Assembly: GCA_963733195.1 (NCBI GenBank)
Contig: CAVTCR010000065.1
Span: forward strand, 32,001-96,000
Direction: 5' to 3'
DNA from: an uncultured delta proteobacterium
GTDB lineage: Bacteria > Desulfobacterota > Binatia > Bin18
Length of the DNA: 64,000 nucleotides
The notes under the pieces were generated by a model that made no database searches, was not told the origin of the DNA, and saw nothing but the letters and a program-made list of their open reading frames with translations. Below are positions 16,784-38,937 of this stretch, piece after piece. Position numbers and translations under genes: made by a program. Position 1 is the stretch's first letter; each line of letters starts with the position of its first letter.

Positions 16784-16952
16784 ACTGGCTTCAAGACTAC
16801 GGTTGAAGGCTGAGGAAAATGATGCTCATCACACGTGATCTGGCGCTGAGTGCGCTTGAACACGTCTTCCCCTTTAAAGCATTCTGATCGGGTCTTGCTT
16901 AGACCGTGTGCCAAGCTTCTCCTTCGCTTGCCTTCCCGGTGCTGTTCTATTA

Positions 16953-17763
16953 CTATTTCCCCTGAAACTTGGCTGGTCGTTTCTCCAGGAATGCGGCTAC
17001 CGCTTCTTTATGGTCTTGGGTCTGAAAGAGATAGTCAAGTCCGAAAGTCTCAGTTTGTACTGCGGCATCAAAGTCACTCTCTGCACCTTGGAGCAGTGCA
17101 CGTTTCGAGACGGCAAGTGCCAACGGTGGCAATGACGCGATCTGTGTGGCCATTTCGCGTACCGCAGTCATGAGCCCTTCACCTGGGACGACTTGGTTGA
17201 CGAGCCCGATATCGAGCGCTTCTTTCGCCTTCAACACTTTGGCGGTGTAGGTAAGCTCCAACGCTTTGGCTAGGCCAATGAGCCTCGGCAACATGAAGGT
17301 TGAGCCCTAACTCTGGCATCAGGCCCATACGCGCGAAAATCGCGCCGATCGACGCCTCTTCTGCCATAATACGAATGTCTTGCAGTAAGGTCAGTGTCAG
17401 ACCGATGCCTACTGCCGGACCGTTGATAGCCGCAATTGTCGGCTTGGCGCAATTGTAGAGCGCGTAATGCAAGCCTGAACGTGGATGCACAACTTGTGAG
17501 GTCATGCGAGAAGAAGAGGAGGACTTTCCCTCATCTTTGATCTGCTTCTGGAACACGCCGCCGACATCTGCTCCCGAGCAAAAGCCGCGACCCGCGCCAG
17601 TCATGATGATAACGCGAACGTCGTTATCTTTGCTTAAGGTCGTGTAGGCATGAGTCAACTCATCGCCCATTAATGTAGTGTACGCATTCAATTTCTGCGG
17701 ACGATTGAGTGTTACTGTAGCGATGTAATCTTTGATCTCGACGAGGATTTCTTGGTATTCCAT
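16953..17763 (-). CDS. Enoyl-CoA hydratase/isomerase (crotonase) family, frameshift near 17295
   Basis: TLNRPQKLNA, GRGFCSGADV, KPTIAAINGPAVGIG, LPRLIG, AFLEKRPAKF. Confidence 0.92.
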
Positions 17764-22314: not shown

Positions 22315-23019
22315 ATGCAGCTCGTCGTCCGAGATGTCTCTAAGCTTTTCAATGTGTCGGAAAAGACCATCTATCGATGGATCTCGCAGGGAGTGCTGCC
22401 TGCCTATCGTGTGAATGACCAGTATCGATTCAATCGGGCGGAACTCCTGGAGTGGGCGACCTCGCGGCGCATGAACGTCTCGCCAGACATTTTTGCCGAG
22501 CCAGAGAGTAGTGCGACACCCCTCCCTGGCTTGGTCGATGCCCTCCAAGCCGGTGGCATCTTTTACCGGATCGGCGGTACGGAGAAGGAGTCGGTCCTGC
22601 GTGCGGTGGTCGAGACTTTACGGCTGCCTGAAGAAGTCGATCGCGAGTTCTTGCTGCGAGTGCTGTTAGCCCGTGAAGCGTTAGAATCGACTGGCATCGG
22701 TGATGGGATTGCGATCCCCCACGTGCGCAATCCTGTCGTTCTGCATATAGCCCGGCCTATGATCACCTTATGTTTTCTCGATCATGCGGTCGATTTCGGT
22801 GCACTCGATGGGAAACCGGTCAGTATCGTCTTTTCCTTGATTAGTCCGACCGTCCGCGCCCATCTTCGCCTCTTGTCTCGGTTGTCATTTGCGCTGCAGG
22901 ATCCAGGTTTCAAGGCCGTGATCCATCGCCAGGGAGCCCGTGATGAGATCTTTGCGGAAGCGCACAGGGTCGAGGCGGGACTGAAATACGACCCGACAGC
23001 AACGGAGCGGAGAGGATAG
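22315..23019 (+). CDS. Excisionase-type HTH fused to PTS IIA (Ntr/Fru-like) domain
   Basis: DVSKLFNVSEKTIYRWI..LPAYRVNDQYRF; REALESTGIGDGIAIPH; AHLRLLSRLS. Confidence 0.92.
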   Translation: MQLVVRDVSKLFNVSEKTIYRWISQGVLPAYRVNDQYRFNRAELLEWATSRRMNVSPDIFAEPESSATPLPGLVDALQAGGIFYRIGGTEKESVLRAVVETLRLPEEVDREFLLRVLLAREALESTGIGDGIAIPHVRNPVVLHIARPMITLCFLDHAVDFGALDGKPVSIVFSLISPTVRAHLRLLSRLSFALQDPGFKAVIHRQGARDEIFAEAHRVEAGLKYDPTATERRG

Positions 23020-24993
23020 ATGACACTGGTGATCGTCGCCCTGATGGTCTTCGGCTTCGCTGGTGTTGGTTCCTTGTGTTGCGGAGCCTCGGCACGGTGG
23101 GCAACGATGGTGGGGGCCGGTGGTGCGATCGTCGGCAGTATACTGGGGCTCATCCCTGTCGTGCCCGTTCTGCTTGGCGCGTCTCCTCTTTTTTTGCACC
23201 TGCCGTGGGAGGTGCCGTATGGCTCCTTCATGATTGCGCTTGATGCGCTGTCTGCGTTTTTCTTGCTGCCGATTTTCATCCTGTCCGGTGTCGCCGCGCT
23301 CTATGGCAGTGAGTATCTCCAAATCTACTGGGAGCGGAAATCCCTCGGCTCCTCGTGGTTCTTCTTCAACCTTCTGGTCGCCAGTATGACGTTGGTGGTC
23401 ATTGCGCGGAATGGCGTCTTGTTTCTGGTGGCCTGGGAAGTGATGGCGCTCGCCTCTTTCTTCTTGGTGACATTTGAAGATGAACACGAACAGGTGCGCG
23501 AAGCTGGTTGGGTCTATCTCGTGGCGACCCATCTCGGCACGGCTTTTCTGCTCGTCCTCTTCGTTCTGCTCGGCCATGAGCATGGTTCGCTTGATTTCGA
23601 CCAGTTCACCGCATCCGCTGGCGCGGATGCGGTGTTTCTCCTTGCGGTGATTGGTTTTGGCGCTAAGGCGGGCTTTATGCCGCTCCATGTGTGGCTGCCA
23701 GAGGCGCATCCCGCGGCGCCGACCCACGTCTCTGCGTTGATGTCCGGTGTCATGATCAAGACGGGCATTTATGGGCTTGTCCGTATACTCACCTTCCTCG
23801 GACCACCGCCGTTGTGGTGGGGATGGGTGCTCTGCGGCATTGGTCTCTCATCGGGCGTCCTTGGTGTGCTGTACGCGCTAGCCCAACATGACCTCAAGCG
23901 TTTGCTGGCGTACCATAGCGTGGAAAACATCGGCATTATCGCGCTAGGTCTTGGGGTAGGGCTTATTGGTCTTAGCAGTGGATCTTCTACCCTGGCGGTG
24001 CTTGGGTTCGCCGGTGGATTGCTCCACGTGCTGAATCACGCCTTGTTTAAGGGACTCCTCTTCCTGGGCGCCGGCGCAGTTATGCATGGTGCAGGTACGC
24101 GGGAGATTGACCATCTCGGTGGTCTCCTCAAACGGATGCCCTGGACAGGGTTGTCCTTCCTTATCGGTGCGGTTGCCATCTCAGGATTGCCGCCGCTCAA
24201 CGGGTTCGTGAGCGAGTTGCTCATCTATGTCAGCGCCTTTCAGGGGGCAACCACACTTGAGAACACAGCGGCTGTTCCTGCGCTTGCAGTGATCGCGGGA
24301 CTCGCTCTTATTGGAGGTCTCGCTGCCGCCTGTTTTGCCAAAGCCTTTGGCATCGTCTTTCTTGGCGAGCCTCGCAGTGACCACGCCGCGCACGCCCACG
24401 AGGCTGGCATGGCTGTACGACTGTCGTTGTTGGTGCTCGCGGCGAGTTGTGTGCTGATTGGGCTCTGTGCGCCGTGGGTCGTAGAGGCGCTGGCTCCCGC
24501 GCTCACGAACGCAACCGGTCTGCCGGCAGACAGTGTGAATACCTTACTGATGTCTGTGCGCAGCACTTTCTCCGCGACTGTCTTAGCCAGCCTAGTGCTG
24601 CTGGTGTTGCTGGCGCTGCTGGCCAGCCTCCGTCACCGCTTGCTCGTGCGACGATCGGTAGAGGAGCACGTCACCTGGGATTGCGGGTATGCTCGTCCCA
24701 CCTCGCGTATGCAGTACACGGCGTCGTCTTTTGCCCAACCGTTGACGAGCCTGTTCCGTTTTTTGCTCCGCACGCGTTTCCATCACGTCATGATGCCAGG
24801 TCTGTTTCCGCGCGCGGCGTCCCTGACGACGGAGACGGAGGATCTCTCGCGCGTACGTCTGTACCAGCCGCTGTTCATCAGTATTGGGCGCGGTCTGTCC
24901 TCGTTGCGGTGGGTACAACATGGACAAGTACATCTGTACGTGTTGTACATCGCGCTCACCCTTCTCGTGCTGTTGGTGTGGAAATTAGGCTGA
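23020..24993 (+). CDS. hyfB: Ehr/hydrogenase-4 antiporter-like membrane subunit (HyfB-like)
   Basis: FLVAWEVM, KAGFMPLHVWLPEAHPAAP, KRLLAYHSVENIG, LNHALFKGLLF, TWDCGY..RMQYTASSF. Confidence 0.9.
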   Translation: MTLVIVALMVFGFAGVGSLCCGASARWATMVGAGGAIVGSILGLIPVVPVLLGASPLFLHLPWEVPYGSFMIALDALSAFFLLPIFILSGVAALYGSEYLQIYWERKSLGSSWFFFNLLVASMTLVVIARNGVLFLVAWEVMALASFFLVTFEDEHEQVREAGWVYLVATHLGTAFLLVLFVLLGHEHGSLDFDQFTASAGADAVFLLAVIGFGAKAGFMPLHVWLPEAHPAAPTHVSALMSGVMIKTGIYGLVRILTFLGPPPLWWGWVLCGIGLSSGVLGVLYALAQHDLKRLLAYHSVENIGIIALGLGVGLIGLSSGSSTLAVLGFAGGLLHVLNHALFKGLLFLGAGAVMHGAGTREIDHLGGLLKRMPWTGLSFLIGAVAISGLPPLNGFVSELLIYVSAFQGATTLENTAAVPALAVIAGLALIGGLAAACFAKAFGIVFLGEPRSDHAAHAHEAGMAVRLSLLVLAASCVLIGLCAPWVVEALAPALTNATGLPADSVNTLLMSVRSTFSATVLASLVLLVLLALLASLRHRLLVRRSVEEHVTWDCGYARPTSRMQYTASSFAQPLTSLFRFLLRTRFHHVMMPGLFPRAASLTTETEDLSRVRLYQPLFISIGRGLSSLRWVQHGQVHLYVLYIALTLLVLLVWKLG

Positions 24994-24997
24994 CGCC

Positions 24998-25909
24998 ATG
25001 TTAATTGCACGACTTCTCCTTCCACTGCTCGCCCTTGTCTTTGCTCCACTGTTGCTGGGAATTATCAGTCGCACGAAGGCGGTCGTTGCTGGCCGTGTAG
25101 GACAACCGCTCCTGCAACCGTATTACGATATATGGAAGCTCTTACAGAAAGGCGCGGTGTACAGCAGTACGACCACCTGGGTGTTCCGTGCGGGACCGAT
25201 GGTCGGCTTGAGCACCATTCTAGTGGCGCTGGCGCTTCTCCCATTCGGTGGGATCCCAGCGCTCCTTGCATTTCCTGGAGATCTCGTCTTGTTTGCCTAC
25301 CTGCTTGGGCTCATGCGCTTTTTCACTGTTCTGGCGGCGCTGGATACCGGCTCCAGTTTCGAGGGTATGGGGGCAAGCCGAGAAGTGACCTTCTCGGCAC
25401 TAGCTGAGCCTGCTCTCTTCTTAGGACTCGCGGCACTCGCACGACAGACCGGAACCTTTTCCCTGTCATCGATGTTTGAGAACGTCACGATCGAAAGCTG
25501 GGCGCAGGCTGGTCCGGCGTTCGTCTTGCTCGCGGCGGCATTCTTGATGGTGTTCTTGACCGAGAATGCGCGCATTCCGGTTGATGATCCAACCACACAT
25601 CTGGAACTCACTATGATCCACGAAGTGATGGTATTAGATCATAGCGGCCCGGACTTTGCCTTCATTCTGTACAGTAGCGCGTTGAAACTGTGGCTACTGG
25701 GAACACTCGTAGTGAGCATTCTTGTGCCTGTGCACCAGAGTGCGGTGTGGCTAAACATTGCCGCGGCGCTGGCAGGAATGGTCGGACTTGCCGTGCTCAC
25801 TGGTCTCATTGAGTCGGCAATGGCGCGGCTGCGACTGCTCCATGTCCCACAACTGCTGGTTGGCGCGAGTGTGCTTGCGATCTTAGCGCTCGTGCTGGTC
25901 TTGAGGTGA
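24998..25909 (+). CDS. hyfC: Ehr NuoH-like membrane subunit (HyfC-like)
   Basis: GRVGQPLLQPYYDIWKLLQK, GSSFEGMGASRE, ENARIPVDDPTTHLELTMIHEVM. Confidence 0.9.
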   Translation: MLIARLLLPLLALVFAPLLLGIISRTKAVVAGRVGQPLLQPYYDIWKLLQKGAVYSSTTTWVFRAGPMVGLSTILVALALLPFGGIPALLAFPGDLVLFAYLLGLMRFFTVLAALDTGSSFEGMGASREVTFSALAEPALFLGLAALARQTGTFSLSSMFENVTIESWAQAGPAFVLLAAAFLMVFLTENARIPVDDPTTHLELTMIHEVMVLDHSGPDFAFILYSSALKLWLLGTLVVSILVPVHQSAVWLNIAAALAGMVGLAVLTGLIESAMARLRLLHVPQLLVGASVLAILALVLVLR

Positions 25910-25913
25910 TCGG

Positions 25914-26558
25914 GTGCTACTCGGGATTGATGCAATTCTGGTCGTTGTTGTCTTGACAAACTTACTGGTGCTGGGCTCCAGTCGCTTAGCAACCTGCATC
26001 CGCAGCGTGGCCCTCCAGGGTGTCCTGCTCGGGGTGATGACGTTCGTGGCGCACGACAGCGCCTCTCCGCTGCGGACCACCATCTTGGCGATCGCGAGTA
26101 TCAGCATAAAGGGCATTGCCTTCCCGGCGTTGTTATTTCGTGCACTTCGCGAGGCGGAAATCCGGCGAGAGATTGAACCGTACGTGGGTTACAATCTCTC
26201 CATTCTCATTGGCTTGGCGATGTTGCTGTTCTCGCTGTGGCTGAGTGAGCGGCTGCCGTTGCCGCAGGTGCCTATCTCGTCCCTGATTGTTCCAGTTGCC
26301 CTGTGTACGAGTTTGATCGGCCTCTTCGTCATTATCAGCCGGAAAAAAGCGATCACCCAGGTCCTGGGCTATCTCGTGCTTGAGAATGGCATCTATGCCT
26401 TTGGCGTCGGTGTGGTGCCGCACTCTCCGCTGTTGGTCGAACTCGGTGTGCTCCTTGATGTTTTTGTCGCCGTTTTCGTTATGGGGATCACGATTTTCCA
26501 CATCAGCCGACAGTTCGACCACATCGATACCGACCGGATGGTACTCCTCAAGGATTGA
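25914..26558 (+). CDS. hyfE: Ehr membrane subunit (HyfE-like)
   Basis: ALQGVLL, RREIEPY, QVLGYLVLENGI, VELGVLLDVF. Confidence 0.88.
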   Translation: MLLGIDAILVVVVLTNLLVLGSSRLATCIRSVALQGVLLGVMTFVAHDSASPLRTTILAIASISIKGIAFPALLFRALREAEIRREIEPYVGYNLSILIGLAMLLFSLWLSERLPLPQVPISSLIVPVALCTSLIGLFVIISRKKAITQVLGYLVLENGIYAFGVGVVPHSPLLVELGVLLDVFVAVFVMGITIFHISRQFDHIDTDRMVLLKD

Positions 26559-26563
26559 CTGCT

Positions 26564-28036
26564 ATGTTGCTTGGGCTTTTACTTACTCCTACTGTCGCTG
26601 GCCTCCTCGCCTTCGCCATTCGCCCCGATGGGCTGCGCCGTGGGCTGCTCTTCATCACGGCGTTGTTGCACACCGGCCTTCTTATCGCGGCCTGGATGAC
26701 ACCGCCAGCACCACTGTTGGGTGGGTGGTTGTGGCTCGATGCCGTCGGTCGAGTGTTCCTTGGTATTACGAGTGTCTTGTTCTTCACGGTCGCAGTGTAC
26801 GGACTGTCCTATCTGCAACGCGAGCATCAAACGACCCATGCGGACTTTGAAGAAGGGTTTCTTTTTGTTGACGCACCAGAGGCGCGCTTCACTGGGTGTT
26901 TGCTGCTCTTCCTGGCAGCTATGACCTTAGTCACAGTGAGTCAACACTTCGGCATTCTCTGGGTTGCCATTGAAGCGACGACGCTGGCGAGCGCGCCGCT
27001 GATTTTCTTTCATCGCCATCATCGGTCGCTGGAGGCGACGTGGAAATATCTGCTGATCTGTTCTGTGGGGATCGCGCTGGCGCTGCTCGGCACCTTTTTT
27101 CTCGCCATCGCCGCGACGCAAGCTGACGGATCGATGTTACCTCTTGCCGTTCCTACGCTGGTACAGGAAGCTGCGCGGCTCCACGATACCTGGTTGGCAG
27201 CCGCGTTTTTGCTCTTGCTGGTCGGCTATGGCACCAAGATGGGTCTTGCGCCGCTACACACCTGGTTGCCAGACGCCCATAGTGAAGCACCCTCGCATGG
27301 TCTCGGCACTGCTCTCTGGCACGCTCTTGAACTGTGCCTTTCTGGGTCTCTTCCGGGTACAGCAGGTGTGCGCTGCTGCTGGCGCTGCTGCATTTGGTCA
27401 AGAACTCTTCATCGGATTTGGTCTACTGTCGATGGCTCGTCGCCGCCGTATTTCTCCAAGGACAAACGGACTATAAACGGTTACTGGCCTACTCAAGTGT
27501 GGAACATATGGGGATCTTGGCATTGGGTGTTGGTCTCGGCGGTAGTGGGACGTTTGGGGCGTTGCTGCACGCCGTTAATCACTCATTAACCAAAGCGATG
27601 CTCTTTCTGGTGGCAGGGAATATTTTGACAGCCTATAAGTCAAAGTCGACGGCTGACGTCCGTGGGGTACTGCGGGTATTACCCATCTCCGGCGTGTTGT
27701 GGGTCGCTGGGTTTCTCGCCATTACTGGCTCGCCTCCCTTCGGTCCATTCCTCAGCGAGTTCACCATCCTGAAAGCCGCATTGGATCAAGGACGAAATGG
27801 GGTCGCGTTCGTCTATCTGCTTCTCTTAGCTGCAATTTTCGTCGGTATGGCCTCGGCAGTGCTCGGGATGGCCCAGGGAACTCCTGGGACAACTGCGGTC
27901 ACGATCAGGTTACTCTGAGTCAGCGCTGACCATCGTGTCACCCGCTGTTTTGGGAACTCTCGTTCTTATTCTTGGACTCTATCTCCCACCACCGTTACGA
28001 GAGACCCTTGAAGAGGCGGCCCGAATGTTGAGGTAA
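26564..28036 (+). CDS. hyfF: Ehr antiporter-like subunit (HyfF-like), frameshifted
   Basis: WVAIEATTLAS, SLEATWKYLLICSVG, GYGTKMGLAPLHTWLPDAHSEAP, KRLLAYSSVEHMG, GSPPFGPFLSEF. Confidence 0.88.
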
Positions 28037-29558
28037 TGAGTATGGTATCCACACGTGAGATGCGGCCAAATGAACTCATTCCTCTGCGAGAGGTTCCACT
28101 CCTCACCATGAGTGAATTCCGTACAACAGTGCTTACTGGTGTGGCGGCTGGTGCCCGGCTGGCTGCGCTCTTCGGGCGACCGCTCGAACGTGACACGGTG
28201 CAACTCATGGCGGTGCTTGCGGACGGGCATACTGGCAGTTTGGCTGTGTTCGCAACGGTCGTAGGTGATGCCTATCCTGCGCTGACGCCAGAGTGTCCGC
28301 AGGCGCACTGGTTTGAACGGGAAATCGCCGAACAGTGGGGGGTGCGACCAGAAGGACATCCGTGGCTCAAACCGATCCGTTTTCATAGATCATATCGGCC
28401 TGGCATGAGGTCTGGCCTGAAAGGAGATGGAACGCAGTTACCAAGTGTCACCGATTTTTTCCAGGTGCAAGGTGAAGAGGTGCATGAAGTTGCGTCGGCC
28501 CGGTGCATGCTGGCATTATCGAACCCGGTCATTTTCGCTTTCAGTGTCACGGCGAGCAAGTGTTCCACCTGGAAATCTCCCTTGGCTATCAACATCGTGG
28601 GGTAGAACGGGTGCTGGTCGGTGGACCAGGAAAACGCACGATCCACCACATGGAAACCCTGGCGGGTGATACCTCGGTCGGTCATGCTACTGCATACTGC
28701 CAAGTTACTTGAGACATTTGCGCGATGCTCGTGTGCCCGCCCGCGCCCAAGCATTGCGAGGGATCGCGCTAGAACTGGAACGGCTCGCCAATCACACCGG
28801 TGATCTGGGCGCACTGGCGGGCGATGTTGGGTATCTGCCAACGGCTTCCTACTGTGGCCGCATTCGTGGCGACTTTCTCAATATGACGGCACTCATCTGT
28901 GGGAGTCGTTTTGGACGAGGCCTCATCCGACCAGGTGGGGTCGGGTTCGATGTCGACGGGCACGTGTCGACCAGTTACTGAGTCCGTCTGGAAAGCGCAT
29001 TCGATGATGTCACGAACGCCGTCAACTTGCTGTGGGACACGTCCTCTGTGCAGGCGCGGTTTGCGGAGACCGGGGTCATCACTCGTGACAACTGCGAGGC
29101 GTTTGGACTCGTGGGACCCGCAGCCCGAGCCTGTGGCGTGGAACGAGATGCGCGTCATGAATTCCCCGCGGGTATCTTTCAGTTTGCCCACATCCCGGTC
29201 TCCACGTGGCATAGTGGCGATGTCTTCGCCCGCGCCTATGTGCGGTGGTTGGAAATCCAGCGTTCCATTGCTTTTGTCGGTGAACAACTGTCGGCGCTAC
29301 CTGACGGACCGTGTCGGACTACGCCTGAGGGACTCGCTCCGGACCATCTTGTTGTCTCCTTGGTCGAAGGCTGGCGCGGGGAAATCTGCCATGTCGCAGG
29401 AACGGATAGCTGAGGGGCGTTTTGCCTTCTATAAAGTCATCGATCCCTCGTTTCACAATTGGATGGGGCTGGCGATGGCGCTGCGCAATCAGCAGATTTC
29501 GGATTTTCCGTTGTGTAACAAGAGTTTCAATCTATCCTATTGCGGACACGATTTATAA
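28036..29558 (+). CDS. hyfG: Ehr large subunit (NuoC+D/HyfG-like) lacking Ni-binding CxxC motifs; several frameshifts
   Basis: WFEREIAEQWG, HAGIIEPGHFRF, LGYQHRGVE, ETLAGDTSVGH in place of RxCGxC, LELERLANHTGD, VEGWRGE, SDFPLCNKSFNLSYCGHDL. Confidence 0.87.
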
Positions 29559-29570
29559 GGCACCGTTTTT

Positions 29571-30378
29571 ATGTTGAACCTCCTCCGTGCGCGCTCCAGC
29601 AAGGACATCGACACTATCGATATCCACGAGCACTCACGGGTACTGCCGGACCGGTTTCGTGGCCGGCCAGAGATCGATGCGACGCTGCGTGCTCAGGAGT
29701 GCCGCGTGTGTGTGGACGCCTGTCCGACTGACGCGATCGACACGAGACACACATGGATGGCGGCTGGATCTGGGGCGCTGTCTATTCTGCACGGACATGT
29801 GAAGAGGCGTGCCCGACCGACGCCATTCATTTCACCCAGGATCATCGACTGGGCACGAGAACACGGGATGATCCTGATTATGCGCACTTCTGCGCTCCCG
29901 CTGGCGCAAGCGCTTGAGGAGACAGACGCGTCGCCTGTTTGGTCGCTCGCTCAAGCTGCGCCAAGTCAGCGCTGGCGGCTGCAACGCCTGCGAGGCGGAT
30001 GTCAATGTGCTCAATACGGTGGTGTTCGATCTGGGGCGCTTCGGCATCCAGTTTGTGGCTTCTCCTCGGCACGCTGATGGATTGCTGATCACGGGACCCG
30101 TGACCGAAAATATGCGCCTCGCCCTGCAGAAGACGTACGATGCGGTTCCTGCGCCGAAGATCGTCATTGCGGTGGGTGCTTGCGCTATTTCCGGTGGTCC
30201 GTTTCGTGATCATCCGGAAGTCCACAACGGAGCTGACGCGGTGGTCCCGGTCGATCTGTACGTGCCCGGCTGTCCACCGCATCCAGTCACGATTCTCGAT
30301 GCGCTCTTACGACTACTGGGAAGAATACCCAACGAGCGTCTGCCCTTCGGCGCCGTAACGGGGAGAATCCATGAGTGA
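29571..30378 (+). CDS. hyfI: Ehr small subunit: ferredoxin domain fused to NuoB/HyfI-like domain, frameshifted
   Basis: CRVCVDACPTDAI, DLGRCLFCT; SAGGCNACEAD, SPRHADGLLITGPV, VGACAISGG, VPGCPPHP. Confidence 0.87.
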
Positions 30379-31431
30379 TGACGAAATGCGCGGTGCACAG
30401 AAACCTCGGCATAGTGACGTTCGATCAGTGAGCCGTTCCCGACCGGCGTACTCGCCTTCGGTGGGGCGGTCATTCGCTCGACCCTCATGCGTGAAGTGCT
30501 CGACCTTGTAGTGCGCATCGCGCCGTCAGACGCGAGCGTCTTGCTGACCGGGGAAAGCGGCGTAGGGAAAGAGGTGGTCGCGCGGGCGATTCATCAACTG
30601 AGTCCACGGGCGTCCCACGAGTTTGTCGCCATCAACTGCGCCTCGCTCTCGGGGGAAACCTTGGAGAACGAACTTTTCGGCCATGAAAAAGGAGCGTTTA
30701 CCAGCGCCGATGAGCGGAAGGTCGGCGTGTTTGAACTGGCCGACAGCGGCACGCTCTTTCTTGATGAAGTCAATGAGATGGGGGCTGCCTGTCAGGCAAA
30801 AGTGCTGCGAGCCCTAGAGCGGCGAGAATTTCGCCGCCTAGGCGGCACCCGGAAAATCAAAGTCGACGTGCGCCTCGTGACCGCCGCCAATGTGGACTTA
30901 CACGAGGCGGTGCGGACGCGCCGGTTTCGCGAAGATCTCTTCTATCGGCTGAACGTAGTGCATATCCACATTCCCCCGTTGCGCGAACGGCGGGAGGCAA
31001 TCGCGCTCATGACGCAGCAGTTTCTGCAGGAATTCTGCGAGAAATATCACAAGCGGGGACGTCACTTCACGGACGACGTCGTAGAACGCTTCGTCCAATA
31101 CCCCTGGCCAGGCAACGTGCGCGAGTTGCGCAATGTGATCGAGAGTCTGGTGCTCACCACGCGCGGGGAGCAGATTGGGCCCAAAGATCTGCCTGCGAAT
31201 ATTCGCGCGGTGGCGCCGTCGCGCGAAATCCACCTGCCGATTGGGGTGACGCTCCAAGATGCTGAGAAGGAAATTTTGCGCTGTTATCTTGAGATCTATC
31301 CCACGCGGAAGGAAGTGGCGCGGGTGCTCAATATTGGCCTGCGCACTTTGCACGCCAAGATCAAAGCCTATGGCCTTCCTCTCCGCCGCGCTGGTAACGA
31401 AGCATCCTCACGTGCCAAATCGGCACGTTGA
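30371..31431 (+). CDS. Sigma54 enhancer-binding protein without a sensory domain (AAA+ plus HTH); start 30371 via frameshift, or 30487
   Basis: [63 protein letters not shown]; no room for a receiver/GAF domain after hyfI. Confidence 0.9.
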
Positions 31432-31511
31432 ACGGCTCCTATTTCTACAAAACGTGCCAAATCGGCATGTTTTTACAAGTACTGAAAGGCAAACCTGCCA
31501 TTTTGGCACAT
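31410..31511. promoter_or_regulatory. Three TGCC-N5-GGCA palindromes (putative activator binding sites)
   Basis: acgtgccaaatcggcacgt, acgtgccaaatcggcatgt, acctgccattttggcacat; TGCC at 31413, 31455, 31496. Confidence 0.7.
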
Positions 31512-31594
31512 TGTTGGCCTCAGCTCAGCGGCAGCGCCGATAGCGAGCGGCTAACCGAATAAACTTTTCGCAGCATTGTCATATCCTGACCGCA

Positions 31595-31610
31595 CGGCAT
31601 TTCTTTTGCT
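31595..31610 (+). promoter_or_regulatory. Putative sigma54 -24/-12 promoter
   Basis: CGGCATTTCTTTTGCT (GG-N10-GC), about 90 bp downstream of the palindromes. Confidence 0.6.
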
Positions 31611-31966
31611 CTACCCATTACCCATGAGTGAGGACGGCGACGAATCGCATCGGTATCGTGGCAAGGAGGGGGCTCAGCGTCGGTTCCTGTTCTCCTGTAA
31701 TGAGTGACGAACGCCGAAAACACGCTGAGAGGCATCCCTGGACTGCATCGCCATACTGATAGTAGAGGCAGAAGGGATGAGGGTACGATGCCGATCGGAT
31801 TCTACTGTGGGTGCTGTCCTCACAAGATGGGAGCAGGTGGGTACAGCTAGTTCGCTCGGTCTCCCTCGCGGTACCTGCCACCCCCTACCCACTCGTGCAG
31901 GAGAGACAACGCCCCGTCTTCTCTGGGACAGGGTGCCAGGAGGAGAGGGTCCGACGGCAGGTGAAG

Positions 31967-32721
31967 ATGCGCATTGCAGAAACGAGTGACCATGCCACGA
32001 ACATCCGTGCGACAGGAGCCATCACTGCTGCGCCCATGACACCGGGCGGCGCGTGGGCCGACGACGGGCCGGCGTTGCTGCGCCTCTGGCCATGTGGCTC
32101 GACCTCACGCTGCTCAATCGCACGGGACTCACCCAGGTGTTGGAGCGCTATGCGCTGCCGCTGGAGGTGACCACGTACTTTCAGCTCAAGTTTCAATCAC
32201 CAAAAGTGATTGCGGTGGATCGTGCCGTGTTTCTGGTCACCGCTGTCGTTGCACCGTCGCCGCGCCAGCTCTTTGTTCTCCATGAGCTGAAGCTCTGTGT
32301 CACGCCGACCCTGGTTGCCGGGCTCTATGCGCATGTCCTACGTACCCAGTCGCCGATCGGGTCGATTCTCAGTCAACCTGTAGACTTGTCATCAGGAGGG
32401 GTGGCTCGATTTGTGTGGGAGGTGCTGGACGGCGTCGTGGCGTCATACGAGGCTGTGGCCACAACGATCTCCAACCATGGACTAGCGCGGAAAGGAACCG
32501 AGGACCTGGGCGTGTGGCAGCAACGCGTAGCGGCATTGGTGGAGGTGATCGGGCAGCAACAGGTGTTTCTCTACAACGTGGCGCGCGCAGGACGTAAGGT
32601 TGGCGTAGATGCACAGCAGGAGAAGCGCGCAGCGTTGGACACCCGTCTTGAGCGGCTGATGGGGATCATCAGTGATGTGAGGCAAACAGAACGGGATATG
32701 CTCCCGCGTTTCGACACGTGA
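31967..32721 (+). CDS. CorA/ZntB-like cytoplasmic domain without transmembrane helices; start uncertain
   Basis: MWLDL..LERYALP..QSPKVIAVDRAVFLV..ELKLCV..FVWEVLDGVVASY then helical stalk; stops with no GMN motif or TM helices. Confidence 0.55.
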
Positions 32722-32998
32722 AATCAACCAACGAGGAGCACACCAGTGAAAGCGTGGGCGGATGCGGTAGCGCGGTTGGACATCCAATGTACCGATTGCC
32801 GATCCGGATTGTGCGGAGCGAATCGCTTGTCTATGACGAGAAGCACCATATCGAACAGCATGTGACGCAGTACGCGTGAGGTCGTTGCGCGTGCGTAAAC
32901 GGGCACCACGCAAGCATGCTTACGGGTGGTGCGAGAGCGGTGGAGAGCGCGATCACGAAGAAAACACGGTTGTCATAAGCGGCAACGCAAGAGAGGGA

Positions 32999-33473
32999 GT
33001 GGAATCGTTATTGCAGCAGGTGGTGTACGTCAAAGAGTTGCTCGAACATGCGTTCGAGGAGTTTGCGCTGAAAGCGCATCATCACCGTGTCACCCTCCGT
33101 TTTATCGCTGGCTGAGACCTTGCCGACCATCATCGTGGATCGCATCCTTCTTATCCGGACACTCCACGTTGCTGATTGATCGCGCATTGGAGGTGACGGC
33201 AGTGGGTGGCGTCGTCGTCCGCGCGAAACGCACAGCGGGTGAGGTCGTGATTGGAGTTGATGATGGTGGGCCGTGGGTGTCGCCACGCGATGTCCCACGG
33301 CTCTTTCTCCCGGGCTCGGCAGAAACAGACCTGCTCGCGGCGGCTGACCTGGCGCGGCAGTTAGGTGGCAGGCTGAGTGCGTCAGGCGGACGGAAACAAC
33401 TCGGCCTACGGGTCAGGCTGCTCGTGCCAACTGCTGCCCGCGCGTGGCGCAGCGCCGGCACGAGAGAGCGTAG
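32999..33473 (+). CDS. Degenerate histidine-kinase-like ATPase (HATPase_c) domain, interrupted
   Basis: Joined frames: VYVKELLEHAFEEF..DLPTIIVDRILLIRTLHVLIDRALEVTAVGGVVV..VIGVDDGGPWVS..RLFLP..LARQLGGRL; N-box Asn replaced by Arg. Confidence 0.6.
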
Positions 33474-33546
33474 GCGATGCCGAAACGCAAGGACAATAAG
33501 TCGCCACGGTGACGCGCAGGCGAGAGACATGACCGCAAGAATGACC

Positions 33547-33735
33547 ATGCACTGGCTGGATGTGCTTTGCCAACATTGGGACCAGCTCTCTGAAGAGACC
33601 CGAGCGCAGGTCCAGCAGTATGACTTTTGGTGTCTGATAGCCGAGCAGCAGAGCAGGAACGAAGTCCCGGACCTCGCGCGTCAGCTTGAGGACACATTGC
33701 AACGACACGCCCGGACATTCGGGTGGAAACCATAA
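33547..33735 (+). CDS. 62-aa Trp-motif microprotein, paralog 1
   Basis: MHWLDVLCQHWDQLSEETRAQV...FGWKP; 25/62 gapless identity with 37416-37604. Confidence 0.75.
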   Translation: MHWLDVLCQHWDQLSEETRAQVQQYDFWCLIAEQQSRNEVPDLARQLEDTLQRHARTFGWKP

Positions 33736-33742
33736 GGACACA

Positions 33743-34027
33743 ATGATGGACAGAGTCGTACGCTTTCCGGCGCAGGGACGCAGCCGCGCCACACTATCAA
33801 CGTCCCAACACGAGCAACTGCGGCTCAAAGACTCTGCAAACCTGCTTCAGGCCCTCACCATTGTCACAGAGGCCCGCGACGCGTTCTTGACGTTTGCCGA
33901 AGGGACGCAGAAGCCAGCGGTCTTCGCAACGTTTATTCATCTGGCCCATGCCATGGACCAGGCCGGGGCAGAGATTTACAGGATGCTGCATCAGGAGGGA
34001 GATAACGATCCTCCGTGTTGTGCGTGA
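33743..34027 (+). CDS. Small helical hypothetical protein
   Basis: TAAGGA RBS, 7 bp after paralog 1 stop; amphipathic helices including FIHLAHAMDQAGAEI. Confidence 0.55.
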   Translation: MMDRVVRFPAQGRSRATLSTSQHEQLRLKDSANLLQALTIVTEARDAFLTFAEGTQKPAVFATFIHLAHAMDQAGAEIYRMLHQEGDNDPPCCA

Positions 34028-34146
34028 GGAGAGAGCTGCATGCATCTCTGTATCTATCGTTCGCCGTCATGTCTGATGTGGGTGTCTACATTCATGGCCG
34101 TCACGGGCCGCAGTACTGAGTACACAACGGCAAGCTCCGACCAATG

Positions 34147-34341
34147 TGCCAGAATGGCAGTTTTTTAGCAGAAAACAGTACCAAAGTGCAGAAGTGGCAG
34201 TACGTGTTGAGGTTGCTATTCATAACATGCTGAAAATGTCACTGTCGGCAGGATACGCAACCCGCGTAGCCACCGTTGCGCACGGCATTTGTTGATGCGG
34301 CAGGATCTCCGCCCGCTGCTGCCACTGGCACGGTGTATGCT
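34147..34341 (+). promoter_or_regulatory. Second palindrome pair plus sigma54 promoter
   Basis: TGCCagaatGGCA (34147), TGCAgaagtGGCA (34187); TGGCACGGTGTATGCT at 34326-34341. Confidence 0.65.
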
Positions 34342-34477
34342 CTCGTTACTGAATATGGCGAGGACGTATGGTAATCCACTGATCAGATCTGACCCAGGAT
34401 GCGGCGACAGGACGTACATGAGTGAACACGAACACAGAACATCGACACCTCGGATATGGAAAAGCATGGAGAAGCTC

Positions 34478-35844
34478 ATGAATAACAATCAGGGAGATCG
34501 GGTGATCAAACAGATCCGCCTTTCGCTGCCGAACGCGACTGGGGCGCTCTCGACGGTCACCACAGCCGTGAGTGGTGCCGGGGGGATCGTCGGCGAGGTG
34601 CGCACCCTGCACAACCATGCACAGCGGCGCGTGGTGCAACTGAACATCCTTGCTGACAAGCGAGCAACAATGGGCGGCAATTAGGCAGGCACTCATGAGG
34701 CTGGAGCACGTACAGGTTGACGCGGAAACCGATCCGATGCTCGATGCGCATCGCGGTGGTCTCATTGGCGTCCAGTCTATCGTCCCGTTTCGTAGTGAAG
34801 AGGACTTCACTACATTCTACACCTCGGGCGCGATAAGCACGGCACGAACGATTGCCCAGTCGCCGCACTTGGTGCCGTGGTACACCGCGATTCCATGCTT
34901 GGTGGCGCTAGTCACCAATGGTGAGAATGTCCCGCACCTCGGGGAGATTGATCCACGTGCGATGATGCCGCTGTTGGAAGGCAAAGCCGTGCTTCTTAAT
35001 ACCATGCTCATGTTGTCGGGGGTGCCGATTCTGCTGGACACACGAGATCCGCACGAGATCGTACGCACGCTTGCCCATATTGCACCGACCTTTGCGGCGA
35101 TCTCCATGGAAGGGATCGCCGCGCCGGCCTGTTTAGCGGTGGAGGAGGCGCTCGTGGCACAGTTACGGCAACCGGTCTGGCACGATGATCAGCATGGGGT
35201 AGCCGTGGTTGTCCTTGCGGCACTGCTCACGCTGGCGAAGCACTCGCAACAGCCACACACACGGATACACGTAGGCGTGGTAGGCTTGGGTGCTTCTGGC
35301 ATTGGCATTGCCAGGCTGCTGCGCGTGGCAGGCGTCCGACAGAGTATGGGGCACTGATCCGCACGAAGACGGGTGCCAACGTTTGACGGAGCTTGGCGGC
35401 AATGCCACCACCGTAGAGGAGATCATGCGCGAAGCGGACGTGATAGTTGTCACCAGCGGGGCTCCGGGTTTCCTCCGAGCCGGAGCTGGTGCGGAGAGGG
35501 CAAACGCTCATTGCCCTCTCTTCTTTCACCCCGAGCTCGCAGAGGCAGAGTGCGCTGCCGAGGCACAGTACATCGCAGATGACCAGCGGCTCATCAGTGC
35601 ACTCGTCTTTCCGGGACTCATACGCGGCGCTCTTGATGCCCGCAGTACCCGCATCACGGATGCGATGAAAATTGCGGCGGCAGTGGCGATTACCCATCAC
35701 AGCCGAGGCGCTGATCTCCTGCCCTCGGTGTTGGACCCGGCTCTGCATCTCCACGTGGCACACGCTGTCCAGGACTGCGCCGCACGAGAACAAATAGAGC
35801 CAGACCGTAGTCCGACAACTGGCCTGCCTCTGGAGAAGGAGTAA
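34478..35844 (+). CDS. Divergent ACT-domain malic-enzyme homolog, frameshifted
   Basis: N-terminal ACT-like segment; HRGGLI, FYTSG, MPLLEGKA, PVWHDDQHG, GLGASGIGIA, FPGLIRGALD. Confidence 0.78.
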
Positions 35845-35848
35845 CACC

Positions 35849-36007
35849 ATGTCACACGATGACGACTGGCTCAAACAACTGCTGAGGCAATGGACGACGC
35901 TCTCTCTGGATGTGCGCGAGCAACTGCACCTGTCTATGCAGCTTGCTCTGGGCGACCGTAAAAATCAGTGTCGCTTGGAGCAGAAACGGAAACTGGCTCG
36001 CGGATAG
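35849..36007 (+). CDS. 52-aa Trp-motif microprotein, more distant paralog (not in ORF track)
   Basis: AAGGAG RBS; MSHDDDWLKQLLRQWTTLSLDVREQL shares the W..L...W..LS pattern. Confidence 0.6.
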   Translation: MSHDDDWLKQLLRQWTTLSLDVREQLHLSMQLALGDRKNQCRLEQKRKLARG

Positions 36008-36128
36008 CCCAACGCCTGTTCACTGATGCAGCAAATAGCAATGCCCACTGCTGAACAAGCAAGCGTAAGACGACAACATTAGTGCGTAAGAGAGGAAACT
36101 CGTTAGTGCCCGTACGACGGAGGGATAT

Positions 36129-36461
36129 ATGGCACACGATCTGCGTGTGATCTTGACAAGGACGGAAAGGCGGACCGCACTGATTGGGAAATGGTTTTGC
36201 GGGGTGCGATTTACCAAGGTGGATCTGGCGGAAGCGGTCTTCAATAAGGCCGACCTGGAAGGGACGACCTTTGTCCTGACGGATTTATATGGCGCAGATT
36301 TCTGTCACACCAATCTGCGCCAGGCAACATTCTGCTTATGTGACCTACATGGTGTGGACTTGACCGATGCGTGTTTGGCAGGAACGACGTTTCGTGGCTG
36401 CCTCGGTCTCTCGCCAGCTACCTGTGCCTACATTCATGCGCACGGCGGCCTGGTACTGTAA
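36129..36461 (+). CDS. Pentapeptide-repeat protein
   Basis: VRFTK VDLAE AVFNK ADLEG TTFVL TDLYG ADFCH TNLRQ ATFCL CDLHG VDLTD ACLAG; GAGGG RBS. Confidence 0.88.
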   Translation: MAHDLRVILTRTERRTALIGKWFCGVRFTKVDLAEAVFNKADLEGTTFVLTDLYGADFCHTNLRQATFCLCDLHGVDLTDACLAGTTFRGCLGLSPATCAYIHAHGGLVL

Positions 36462-36532
36462 GACCCAGGGAGAAGGGGGTACCCGGGAGAGGATTGGCTG
36501 TACGTCCGCTCAGAGAAAGGAAACCCGTTGCT

Positions 36533-37313
36533 ATGACTCCAGCACTTTTGCAACCCACGATGGTTCAGGATAACGACGGTGGAGACGCAGCTCACTGCCC
36601 TGGTGCAGGGGAGACATAACGTCCATCGTTTGTTGCAACATACCTGCCTGTTGGAACGGCGGCTGCGGGGCGGTGGAGAGCCGACCGATCTGCTACTGCT
36701 TGTGCCAGACATAAAGTTTGCGGTTGAAGAACTCCAAACACTCCTCCAATTTGCTGAGCAAGCAGTATTGCCAGCGCGTCGTAGCGGAGCGCGTACGGCA
36801 GATAAACGAGAACCCCATCCTCCTACTCGGCGACGGCGTGTCGAACTTGGGCCATTGCTCACTCGCTGTGTTTCGGCAGCACGACAGCGATTGCACGGCA
36901 ACGGCGCGTCCGTGCTCTTCCACATTGCTGTTGACCTTCCAGTCTTGACTACCAATCCGGAGACAGTGAGGCACATCCTTTCTTTGCTGTTCGAGCACGC
37001 AATCACGGCGAGTGGAAGAGAAGAGCGAGAAGTGCACGTGCAGTGGACCAACGAGACGTTAGTCGTCGACATCGACGACGCTGGACGAGGGCTCGCTCAA
37101 GAGACCTATACGAGGACTGCGTCAGTTGGTCGAGCAATTAGACGGGACGTTCAGAGTCTCCCACGAACTCGGACAACGGTCGCGTGTAGAACTCACCTTC
37201 GCTCCAGCTGCCCCGAGCGGAAGTGCGGTGGGTCCGGTGGTTCCCCTCCACCGGAAGGGACACGGATGCTGAACAAGAGAGTGGTTATTAATTGGACTGC
37301 TCCTGCCTGGTAG
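36533..37313 (+). CDS. Degenerate histidine kinase (HisKA-like helices plus HATPase_c), frameshifted at both ends
   Basis: RVELGPLLTRCVSAA..VDLPVLTTNPETVRHILSLLFEHAI..LVVDIDDAGRGL; shifted frame QLVEQLDGTFRVSHELGQRSRVELTF; N-box Asn absent. Confidence 0.65.
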
Positions 37314-37415
37314 TGGAGATATGGAACAGCGCAACGGGCCGAAGCCGCGGTCCAAAAAATGGAAGAGCGGGTTACTAAACGGATGAGGAAATAGCCGTAA
37401 GCAAGAGGAACCGCT

Positions 37416-37604
37416 ATGACGTGGTTTGATGTGCTCCTTGAGCACTGGTCGGATCTGTCTGTTGAGGTGCAAAAGAAAGTGCACGAGTATCACGAGTTGC
37501 ACGCTGCGGCGGGGCAGTTCGGCAGATGGTTTCTACCGGAGCGAGTGTGGCAGCTTGAGCAGGAATTACAAGTGGAAGCCCGCAAACTCGGCTGGCGCTG
37601 GTAA
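37416..37604 (+). CDS. 62-aa Trp-motif microprotein, paralog 2
   Basis: GAGGA RBS; MTWFDVLLEHWSDLSVEVQKKV...LGWRW. Confidence 0.78.
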   Translation: MTWFDVLLEHWSDLSVEVQKKVHEYHELHAAAGQFGRWFLPERVWQLEQELQVEARKLGWRW

Positions 37605-37626
37605 CAACGGGTCCCTGTGACAGTGT

Positions 37627-37986
37627 GTGATGTTACCAAGAAGGCGTCCAGAGAAGGTCAAGGCTATAAACGACGAGGAAGCACTATTGTTTGAGATCAA
37701 ACCGGTTGCCATGTTTGTGGATCGGGGGACGGTCGTGTCGCGGGAATTTATGTCTCACGATGGCCGTGTGATAGCCGGTTATCGTGCGCGTCCAGGCGTG
37801 GTTGGATTTCCCGCTTGGACGCGTTTAGGTGACTTGGTGACTGGACATCGCGAGACGGGCCGTCAGTGGTTCTCTACAGGGGTAGCCGCTTACCTCTGGG
37901 TTTTGTCGCGCGTGAACGGCTGGCACGAATTGTCACCGGTTCCTACGGCTATCTCCGGTGGCACACAATCAACGTGGCAGAAGTAG
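37627..37986 (+). CDS. Hypothetical protein
   Basis: 119 aa ORF co-oriented with the cluster; no recognised motif. Confidence 0.4.
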   Translation: MMLPRRRPEKVKAINDEEALLFEIKPVAMFVDRGTVVSREFMSHDGRVIAGYRARPGVVGFPAWTRLGDLVTGHRETGRQWFSTGVAAYLWVLSRVNGWHELSPVPTAISGGTQSTWQK

Positions 37987-38109
37987 CGTGAGCGAACACA
38001 GAGAGCTTCAGAGGCAAGGATGCTTGTCTTTCAAGGCGTTTCATGTCGTGAGGTCGAGCACAAAGCGCCATAAATTGAATAGTGTCTCGCCTGAGAAAGG
38101 AGTCGACTG

Positions 38110-38937
38110 ATGACTGAAACATTACCCCGCCTGTTGACGCTACAAGCCTGTGACCAGCGCATCCGAGAGGCGTTGCATACCCTCGAGAGCCTACGAGCCT
38201 CGCTGGCTGTCCTAACAGAGCAAGCAGTTGCCAACGCGCAAGATATGCAAGCCTGCCACGATACAATCCTGGAGGCCACACAGGCGCGTGACGCGCTCGC
38301 CACGCAGCGTGATCAGATCAAAGATCAATTGCGAGAGAAAAAGCGTAGCGAGCATCGTCGCGGTGCTGGAAAGGTGAAAGAGTTCATCCAACAAGAGATT
38401 GCGCTTCTGGACGCGCAGAAGGCTGCCATAGAGGAGGAACTGCGTACCGTGGAGGTGCAGATCACTGAAGACAGCGCCACACTCCACCAGGCTGAAGAAG
38501 CTGCTCCGACGCAGGCGGAGGAACGGCAACGTACTACCGCTGCACTGCTCGATCAGATTGCCGCTACACAAGAAGTGCTCCGCGCGGCGCAAGAGGAGCG
38601 TAGCGCACTGACCTCAGGCATCATGCCGTTCGTTCTCTATAAATATGAGCGGATCTCCGCCCATCGCGGTGGCGTCGCCGTGGTGGCGATCGCACATGAG
38701 ACGTGTCAAGGGTGTCACCTGCACGTGCCAGCGCACCTCTGTCTTGAACTGCAGAAAACCCTCAGACTCGCGTTTTGTCCCAATTGTCATCGTATTGTCT
38801 TTGTGGCGAACGAGGCTCCGATTGCATCGCCGCCCTCCCACCGACCTGCCGCGACCAAACGCCGCACGCCCCGTCCACAACGCTACACGCGGGCGGCAGC
38901 GTGCAACAGCGAAACGATCCCAGCGACAAGTAGCTGA
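38110..38937 (+). CDS. Coiled-coil C4 zinc-ribbon protein (DUF164; HP0958/FlgZ, CT398/CdsZ family)
   Basis: LLTLQACDQRI, long coiled coil, YERI..GGVAVVAI..CQGCHLHVP..FCPNCHRIVF; AAGGAG RBS. Confidence 0.85.
   Translation: MTETLPRLLTLQACDQRIREALHTLESLRASLAVLTEQAVANAQDMQACHDTILEATQARDALATQRDQIKDQLREKKRSEHRRGAGKVKEFIQQEIALLDAQKAAIEEELRTVEVQITEDSATLHQAEEAAPTQAEERQRTTAALLDQIAATQEVLRAAQEERSALTSGIMPFVLYKYERISAHRGGVAVVAIAHETCQGCHLHVPAHLCLELQKTLRLAFCPNCHRIVFVANEAPIASPPSHRPAATKRRTPRPQRYTRAAACNSETIPATSS

Follow-up and report, generated by a model that had tools for sequence, protein, structure and literature searches.

Positions 30371–38937 of the DNA analysed here raise the question whether a row of small, co-oriented genes behind an Ehr-type operon forms a working regulatory unit or is what remains of a decaying island. 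The analysed stretch, referred to as the window, comprises 64,000 nucleotides of contig CAVTCR010000065.1 (assembly GCA_963733195.1) from an uncultured delta proteobacterium, and carries the Ehr operon followed by the cluster under study on its + strand (22315–38937). Comparison of homologous loci identifies the cluster as a real, conserved accessory module, confined to a few genera of one family. The reading preferred here combines this conserved module with a closed sigma-54 circuit that would be under the control of its own products, and takes the frame-breaking indels of this copy as assembly or sequencing errors; as a whole, its chances are judged to be about even. No description of the cluster was found in the literature searched, within a limited library and set of terms.

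Conservation of the cluster and its promoters

An earlier note, made from the letters of this stretch alone, had proposed that the Ehr operon ends in a sigma-54 activator with no sensory domain. This is borne out by Pfam and by seven intact orthologues, which have at most ~40 variable residues ahead of the AAA+ core and no N-terminal Pfam domain. The protein matches Sigma54_activat (PF00158, E = 7e-65), an AAA lid and HTH_8 (E = 6e-5), and in an alignment of eight sequences the Walker A motif, the GAFTSA loop and the helix-turn-helix (HTH) are invariant. The loop deviates from the GAFTGA type in that Ser replaces the second Gly. The activator is encoded by the last gene of the Ehr operon, whose start codon lies across the stop codon of the small-subunit gene. 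In the window its frame is shifted by a 1-base deletion near 30419, and the protein is 95% identical to the intact one of G011 over residues 54–385. Pairwise dN/dS of the activator lies at 0.05–0.11. As far as sequence features can tell, those of the enhancer-binding protein (EBP) class are present: a sigma-54 interaction domain, a Fis-type HTH, an rpoN gene (on contig C62 of the same genome) and –24/–12 promoters with enhancer sites.

The two similarly built promoters that the note had described, each with phased palindromes ahead of a –24/–12 site, were found where it had placed them and are specific to the cluster. TGCC-N5-GGCA occurs eight times in the window, among others at 31413, 31455, 31496 and 34147, against 1.73 expected, a number reached in 0 of 100 shuffles. 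GGCAY-N6-TGCT occurs only twice (31596 and 34327), which is not significant by itself, at least two being found in 45 of 100 shuffles. Of 392 sites matching the promoter pattern in the whole genome (G000), only P1 and P2 have at least two TGC-N7-GCA sites 60–220 bases upstream. The conserved design places TGC-N7-GCA at about –183, –141 and –99 from a GGCAC-N6-TGCT –24/–12 element. All nine other loci examined have a P1-like arrangement behind their activator gene, and the design is present in all loci whose sequence covers the promoter region. The P2 sequence type recurs in L017, L018, L025, L040 and G011, and both G011 and L040 have a second promoter–enhancer copy ahead of a second gene block. 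A strict composite pattern gave five matches in four of five cluster-bearing genomes searched, all of them within the cluster, compared to one match for a reversed control; G457 gave none because its second site deviates. By these pattern searches, the promoter/enhancer design is conserved and unique to the cluster.

Homologous clusters beside a sensor-less activator do exist. Intact syntenic versions are found in G011, G003, G013, G456 and G457 as well as on 24 metagenome contigs, and a pattern scan located the cluster at 24 metagenome and four genome loci. The 27 homologues of the histidine-kinase-like product HK2 are 51–93% identical to the G011 query, most of them 245–246 amino acids (aa) long. 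HK2 is present in 7 of 55 species genomes of the family, representing 4 of 10 genera. Among 401 genomes sampled across the phylum it was found only in G000, apart from four weak matches (E ~1e-11) to far longer open reading frames (ORFs). The cluster-type DUF164 paralogue occurs only in the same seven genomes (48–88% identity); a DUF164 match as such is found in 54 of the 55 family genomes, the housekeeping copies being 25–31% identical. As the carrier genomes are kin, this co-occurrence is no independent statistic. Pairwise dN/dS is 0.11–0.61 for every cluster gene, microproteins included, and thus not near 1. For the family, the decaying island that the note had kept as its alternative fails, given synteny, dN/dS, conserved promoters and conserved motifs.

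The content of individual loci varies. Minimal forms consist of activator, CorA-like protein, HK2 and DUF164 protein (L013), or of the same set with HK1 (L025). Richer loci add the ACT-malic protein, microproteins, pentapeptide, 91-aa and 139-aa proteins and a pseudo-receiver. A block of promoter, CorA-like, HK-like and microprotein genes is duplicated in the window, G011 and L040.

Three observations on related records are added here. Similarity between the window (36129–37604) and L017 is a mosaic (dS 0.05 for microprotein 3, 1.28 for the pentapeptide gene and 0.40 for DUF164), which suggests recombination between cluster variants. In L010 (G001:C1240, 1384–2289), from the same genus, the N-terminal part of HK2 and residues 32–273 of DUF164 make up a single ORF of 301 aa, and the locus has no malic-like, microprotein 3 or p91 gene; either a natural deletion or fusion or an assembly chimera would account for it. 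The taxonomy given by submitters is inconsistent: related metagenome-assembled genomes that share the cluster or the Ehr genes are variously recorded as Binatia, Methylomirabilota, Deltaproteobacteria and even Enterobacteriaceae.

Products with altered catalytic motifs

The gene order was read by comparing the window with G011:C11 (L009) and the intact loci L017, L025, L039 and L040. P1 is followed by a possible pseudo-receiver remnant, CorA-like A, HK1 and microprotein 1; P2 is followed by the ACT-malic-like gene, microprotein 2, the pentapeptide gene, HK2, microprotein 3, the ~91-aa protein and DUF164 (Table 1). By domain and motif comparison, nearly all products appear to be domains of signalling type whose active sites are disabled. 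The core comprises the soluble CorA-like domain, the DHp-CA pseudokinase HK2 and the dedicated paralogue of DUF164; the second pseudokinase, the Trp microproteins, the ACT-malic-like and pentapeptide proteins and the pseudo-receiver are accessories. All elements named in the note are present, including its three paralogous Trp-motif microproteins (52–62 aa) and the pentapeptide-repeat and DUF164 zinc-ribbon proteins, both recovered by Pfam. Several of the ORFs that it worked from are fragments, however, since 1-base indels split HK1, the malic-like gene, HK2 and the activator relative to intact orthologues.

The CorA domain without transmembrane (TM) helices is supported by both protein length and predicted fold. 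The CorA-like proteins measure 222–268 aa and end after the third long helix, without the C-terminal TM helices or the GMN motif. The AlphaFold2 model (predicted local distance difference test, pLDDT, 76) retrieved the cytoplasmic domains of CorA/ZntB as top Foldseek matches (probability 1.0, TM-score 0.55–0.70). The Pfam CorA match is weak and below the cut-off, covering profile positions 2–208 of 292. Among 1.84 billion proteins the family has 54 representatives at E ≤ 1e-3, mostly of 190–255 aa. In L022 (4477–5622) and L037 (5232–6377) the CorA-like domain is fused to the pentapeptide-repeat protein in one 381-aa ORF, which suggests that the two interact where they are separate; two CorA-like representatives of 379–383 aa in the large library share the length of this fusion.

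The note had further described two histidine-kinase folds lacking the N-box Asn, and this holds for both. HK1 consists of a CA domain only and has Arg at this position in all five sequences. For HK2, the predicted structure (pLDDT 76) combines a DHp hairpin with a CA domain and is nearest to HK853, ZraS and DivL. Alignment with ZraS, the best sequence match of known structure (E = 4e-9), places His at the N-box Asn and reveals the absence of a lid of ~20 residues together with G2. Nucleotide binding by HK2 is therefore doubtful, as both the N-box Asn and the ATP lid are missing. HK2 retains a G1-like DDAGRG, and its E155-H156 pair hardly varies. The DHp hairpin is predicted as helices H15–46 and H51–79, and His37 in the first of these is nearly invariant, with one Tyr.

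Malic enzymes depend on a catalytic Tyr and Lys, an NAD(P)-binding GxGxxG motif and Glu-Asp...Asp ligands of a divalent metal. The cluster protein has an N-terminal ACT domain and matches the solved malic enzyme 2a9f at E = 1e-57, and its metal motif is altered as had been reported: all four sequences have EG in place of ED, and VEGI aligns with LEDI of the solved enzyme. GLGxxG and HDDQHG are kept in 4 of 4 sequences, FYTSG and EGK in 3 of 4. In G011:C11 (L009, reverse strand) the ACT-malic gene is reduced to an in-frame remnant of 104 aa (N-terminal 51 and C-terminal 53 aa).

The microproteins share the motif M-x-W-[FL]-D-V-L-L-x-H-W ... G-W and fall into three paralogue groups. Microprotein 3 has 14 homologues of 46–62 aa in public data, none with a Pfam domain, and its look-up in the ESM Atlas returned a best score of 0.75, below the usable level. 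The ~91-aa protein shows a dN/dS of 0.20–0.26. An accessory protein of 139 aa has a hydrophobic N-terminal stretch. The cluster DUF164 protein has two CxxC motifs in translation (CQGC and CPNC) and a weak match to CT398_CC; on the NCBIfam model Zn_ribbon_CdsZ it scores 52.7 bits against an equivalog cut-off of 275. The second, housekeeping DUF164 copy of this genome is located on contig C42.

A stand-alone pseudo-receiver, intact or recognisable, follows the promoter in L022, L037, L025, L039 and G011. It matches Response_reg at E = 0.001–0.1 only, and both the DD pair and the acceptor Asp are replaced as read from the sequences. In the 440-base leader of the window no recognisable pseudo-receiver gene was found at a significant E value. 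At the other end of the cluster, a conserved protein of ~124 aa without Pfam match follows DUF164 in L013 (121–863), L039 (~9773–10500) and L041 (7078–7416), with a genuine receiver domain next to it in L013 and L039 and a P-II protein in L041. Both the ~124-aa protein and the subsequent receiver are absent from the window, which has a convergent aat gene at this place. Since the altered residues recur across the aligned homologues, the degenerate catalytic motifs are conserved features of these families rather than signs of decay.

Table 1. Features of the Ehr operon and of the adjoining cluster, in window coordinates
Feature	Position	Strand	Details and support
Opening gene of the Ehr operon, fusion of HTH_17 and PTS_EIIA_2, intact, 234 aa	22315..23019	+	Pfam PTS_EIIA_2 E=2e-23, HTH_17 E=1e-14
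NuoL-like (657 aa), NuoH-like (303 aa) and NuoJK-like (214 aa) genes, intact, and first half of NuoM/N-like gene	23020..27294	+	Pfam
Indel-dense tract: NuoM/N-like, NuoCD-like large subunit (~505 aa) and Fer4+NuoB-like small subunit (255 aa), split	27295..29925	+	G010/G005 three-way alignment; tblastn frame jumps
Sigma-54 activator (EBP) without sensory domain	30371..31431	+	Pfam; long ORF 30487-31431
Three phased enhancer-like TGCC-N5-GGCA palindromes	31413..31508	.	Pattern search; at 31413, 31455 and 31496, spacing 42 and 41 bases
Sigma-54 type -24/-12 promoter P1	31596..31610	+	GGCATTTCTTTTGCT; pattern and comparison of loci
Possible degraded pseudo-receiver remnant, weak, not significant	31740..31990	+	Best tblastn E ~0.04-0.5; three-frame translation
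CorA-like A, soluble domain protein without membrane segment, 222 aa, apparently intact	32053..32721	+	
HK1, HATPase_c-only protein of ~150 aa, Arg replacing the N-box Asn	32990..33432	+	Split by insertions 33107 and 33167
Microprotein 1, 62 aa, W-x7-W ... GW motif	33547..33735	+	dN/dS 0.17-0.40
Second enhancer and promoter P2	34147..34341	+	TGCCAGAATGGCA and TGCAGAAGTGGCA (sites at 34147 and 34188), half-site near 34230, then GGCACGGTGTATGCT at 34327
ACT + malic-enzyme-like protein, 460-467 aa when intact	34478..35859	+	Split at 34656, 35342, 35478 and 35529
Microprotein 2, 52 aa here, 68 aa in relatives	35849..36007	+	
Pentapeptide-repeat protein, 110 aa	36129..36461	+	Pfam E=2e-16
HK2, DHp + CA core of 246 aa, N-box Asn to His, no ATP lid	36533..37272	+	Split by insertions 36586 and 37116
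Microprotein 3, 62 aa	37416..37604	+	
Small conserved protein, ~91 aa in relatives	37627..37986	+	Conserved part 37660-37962; no Pfam match
Cluster-specific DUF164 / Zn_ribbon_9 paralogue, 275 aa, intact	38110..38937	+	Pfam E=1.6e-8

A candidate closed circuit and its precedents

In the preferred reading, the activator would be made together with Ehr and, having no input domain, would bind the three phased TGC-N7-GCA sites and drive one or two adjacent sigma-54 promoters, its only recognisable targets. Products of the cluster would then bind the activator, or sigma-54 via DUF164, and set its activity in trans. Ligands would provide the input, for instance a divalent cation, a dicarboxylate or NAD(P), and a nucleotide, and the outcome would be a closed, ligand-gated feedback loop like PspF-PspA or NifA-NifL. 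Such a loop is favoured because an activator without input domain is combined with two adjacent target promoters, binding-type domains devoid of catalytic residues and a private DUF164 paralogue. By analogy with PspF-PspA, NifA-NifL and HrpS-HrpV, feedback of the cluster products on the activator would be the most likely mechanism. A complex prediction of the activator with HK2 (score 0.00, mark 0.32) gave no verdict and speaks neither for nor against binding. A bolder form of this reading, which seems doubtful, is a previously undescribed, self-contained sigma-54 module of disabled signalling domains that would gate transcription purely by ligand-dependent protein sequestration and would, in most hosts, read an ionic or redox state set by Ehr. 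Here the CorA-like domain would serve as a sensor without a channel, and the DUF164 paralogue as a private chaperone of sigma-54.

One close precedent is Psp, where PspF consists of an AAA+ core and an HTH only and the neighbouring operon encodes its own regulator. The cluster activator has the same architecture and its regulon is apparently limited to the neighbouring operon, which is expected to encode its own regulator, but Pfam scans of the cluster ORFs gave no match of PspA/IM30 type, the products being CorA-like, pseudokinase and DUF164 proteins instead. Moreover, the activator is not a pspF equivalog, as it scores 256.7 bits on the NCBIfam pspF model against a cut-off of 443.55. NifL is a non-phosphorylating DHp and GHKL protein that controls the sigma-54 activator NifA by direct binding. 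HK2 shares the DHp and CA architecture but differs in having no PAS domains, N-box Asn or ATP lid, and the cluster activator lacks a GAF domain. HrpR and HrpS are likewise sensor-less activators, regulated in trans by small partner proteins (HrpV). The cluster resembles them in its sensor-less activator and small candidate partners, albeit with a single activator gene and partners for which no sequence relation to Hrp proteins was found.

The individual products have relatives of their own. HK2 has the DHp hairpin and CA fold in common with DivL-type pseudokinases and the ZraS/HK853 core, whereas it is soluble, only 246 aa long, changed from Asn to His and deprived of the ATP lid. The CorA-like protein has the fold of the cytoplasmic domain of CorA/ZntB; unlike these it is without TM helices or GMN region, stays below the Pfam cut-off and forms a small separate family. 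HyfR and FhlA have formate-sensing N-terminal domains and activate their own hydrogenase operon. The position of a sigma-54 activator gene at the end of a group-4 hydrogenase-like operon is shared with them; here, however, no such promoter/enhancer lies ahead of Ehr and the target sites are downstream of the activator gene. The cluster DUF164 protein resembles FlgZ/HP0958 and CdsZ/CT398 in its coiled coil and C4 zinc ribbon, and as a dedicated paralogue it travels with a sigma-54 module, although it is far from the housekeeping DUF164 proteins in identity (see above) and also below the CdsZ equivalog cut-off. FlgZ is reported to protect RpoN from turnover (PMC3372290).

Several observations weigh against the preferred reading. 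An output gene outside the module was not identified. All loci come from one family, and the conserved synteny is therefore partly shared descent. Counted over the 11 loci with visible DNA upstream of the activator, three (L022, L025 and L037) have activator and cluster without Ehr. Real rearrangements occur in the cluster elsewhere, namely an HK1 remnant in L017, the malic deletion and an Ehr remnant in G011, and the HK2–DUF164 fusion ORF in G001; with such deletions and remnants in other loci, true decay in the window is not far-fetched. Finally, at least one other gene of the window, katG near 13.5 kb, is frameshifted as well.

Indels, Ehr linkage and other explanations

The strongest alternative is that the module is conserved but the copy in this genome is truly dying, real frameshifts having accumulated after loss of function in four cluster genes as well as in the activator and the distal part of the Ehr operon. 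About 28 small indels between 27295 and 37116 break seven genes, i.e. the activator, HK1, HK2, the malic-like gene and three Ehr genes; those beyond 29925 are located at 30364, 30419, 33107, 33167, 34656, 35342, 35478, 35529, 36586 and 37116. All that is left of the pseudo-receiver is a remnant below significance, the window has neither CorA-like B nor the 124-aa gene that follows DUF164, and real deletions and remnants are found in other lineages. In addition, G002, a genome of the same genus that is 100% complete, lacks both Ehr and cluster and gave matches to activator-like stretches alone; the module is thus dispensable.

The fine structure of the tract argues otherwise. The three-way alignment with G010 and G005 revealed 18 window-specific frame-breaking indels in 27295–29925 compared to one non-disruptive indel in the preceding 5 kb, and the left edge of the tract is sharp, falling inside one gene of an otherwise intact operon. 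Window-specific substitutions are not in excess: their rate is 0.053–0.080 per site in the broken tract and 0.056–0.093 in the intact part, and their ratio to G010-specific changes 0.58–0.74 and 0.53–0.78, respectively. The third-position bias is kept, with substitutions at the three codon positions of 0.030/0.023/0.126 in the broken and 0.060/0.021/0.154 in the intact part. Natural +1 frameshifts arise mostly by slippage in base runs; here, 16 of the 19 single-base insertions match neither neighbouring base. Amino-acid identity to orthologues of 82–94% persists in the shifted NuoM/N-like frames. The activator, HK1, malic-like and HK2 genes change frame in the window, while all compared orthologues run in one frame, and an intact HK2 from another assembly (P0015) is ~96% identical to the window copy, counted from the alignment. 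For the broken Ehr large subunit, a search for an intact, almost identical allele gave nothing above 86% identity. The genome as a whole is not indel-ridden, with 62 ORFs of at least 1000 aa, and coverage by ORFs of at least 150–200 aa did not single out the region.

With no excess of substitutions, an unchanged codon bias and 16 of 19 insertions that are not copies of a neighbouring base, the indels are most likely assembly errors, and the tract is probably a locally unpolished or low-coverage stretch of the assembly. Decay of this copy is unlikely on these sequence statistics. Of the “pseudo-proteins” announced in the earlier note, the conserved dead sites of both HK-like proteins and of the malic-like protein stand, whereas the frameshifts are local to this copy and probably technical.

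Elsewhere in the window, two different frames make up the katG-like peroxidase gene (11769–13977, – strand), with the break near 13530. The stretch around it (10–14 kb) has 64% G+C and also holds IS66 transposase fragments (10216–11287). For a sulfatase ORF (60044–61785), the Pfam match begins at model position 75, and the ORF that overlaps it upstream, in a different frame, is unmatched; this may be another frameshift or a wrong start. Positions 14000–17200 form ~3 kb without an ORF of at least 150 aa, an Rfam match or a tRNA. Rfam gave no match in 21–40 kb at E ≤ 0.1 and none window-wide at gathering scores, and no tRNA was found.

A further alternative, which we regard as less likely again than decay of this copy, has the module products acting mainly on the Ehr membrane complex (assembly, gating or metabolite coupling), the activator serving merely to couple their synthesis to Ehr transcription. 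The overlap of the activator gene with the last Ehr gene points in this direction, as do the CorA-like fold, normally the cytoplasmic funnel of an ion channel, the hydrophobic stretch of the 139-aa accessory protein and the Ehr linkage of 8 of the 11 loci: the window, G011 (fused remnant only), L039, L040, L041 (=G003), L017, L011 (=G005) and G013. Against it stand the three loci that carry activator and cluster without Ehr, the cluster of G011 beside a mere Ehr remnant, and G010, which has an intact Ehr but neither activator nor cluster. In L037 and L022 an unrelated ORF of 388 or 307 aa is found upstream, and in L025 the 281 upstream bases contain no Ehr match. Since some loci have either one without the other, the unit is the activator plus its cluster, usually docked behind Ehr. 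The attachment to an Ehr complex claimed in the note is thus frequent, not obligatory. Action on Ehr and the closed circuit of the preferred reading are not mutually exclusive.

Upstream of the activator, the stretch 23020–27294 is collinear with the intact operons of G005 and G010 and has no frame-breaking indel. The CxxC motif is absent from the intact orthologous large subunits of G010 and G005, and the complex is therefore assigned to Ehr rather than to the hydrogenases. This agrees with the Ehr definition in PMC10284858, namely a group-4-like subunit set and a large subunit without NiFe-binding CxxC pairs; the same source gives the function of Ehr complexes as unknown. No sigma-54 promoter/enhancer design of the cluster type was seen upstream of the Ehr operon. 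The fusion of HTH_17 with a PtsN-like PTS EIIA-2 domain that opens the operon is also kept in the Ehr operons of G005 and G010. EIIA-Ntr proteins are classically associated with rpoN. In G011, a 208-aa fusion of Ehr large- and small-subunit fragments lies beside the activator that is 95% identical to that of the window.

That there is no functional unit at all, the cluster being unrelated or junk ORFs held together by recent common descent alone, is very improbable. One family does supply all loci, and most of the proteins have no curated family. Still, purifying selection acts on every gene, including those of 52–62 aa, the core and the promoter design persist although order and content vary between loci, and the DUF164 paralogue and HK2 occur in the same seven genomes. 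The least probable explanation, a mobile or anti-phage defence island in which the sigma-54 activator is incidental, would fit the patchy distribution, the variable content and the match of the activator to RtcR/PspF-type PADLOC models, but this match runs through the AAA+ domain, PADLOC gave no match for the nine other cluster proteins tested, the edges of the cluster show neither an integrase or transposase nor a repeat boundary in ORF lists and Pfam scans, and the insertion site beside Ehr is common to several genera.

In summary, gene calls in the 10-kb tract should not be read as pseudogenes unchecked, in view of the ~28 probably spurious indels it contains. To our knowledge, sensor-less sigma-54 activators are known from few systems only, e.g. 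Psp and Hrp, each of which taught a distinct form of trans control. The module described here would add a compact third example, in which enhancer and promoter are defined, the regulon is tiny and several candidate partners are at hand, and as such a new variant of partner-controlled sigma-54 regulation with a narrow distribution. It also supplies natural pseudokinase, pseudo-receiver and pseudoenzyme domains under purifying selection, and may offer the first regulatory handle on Ehr complexes.

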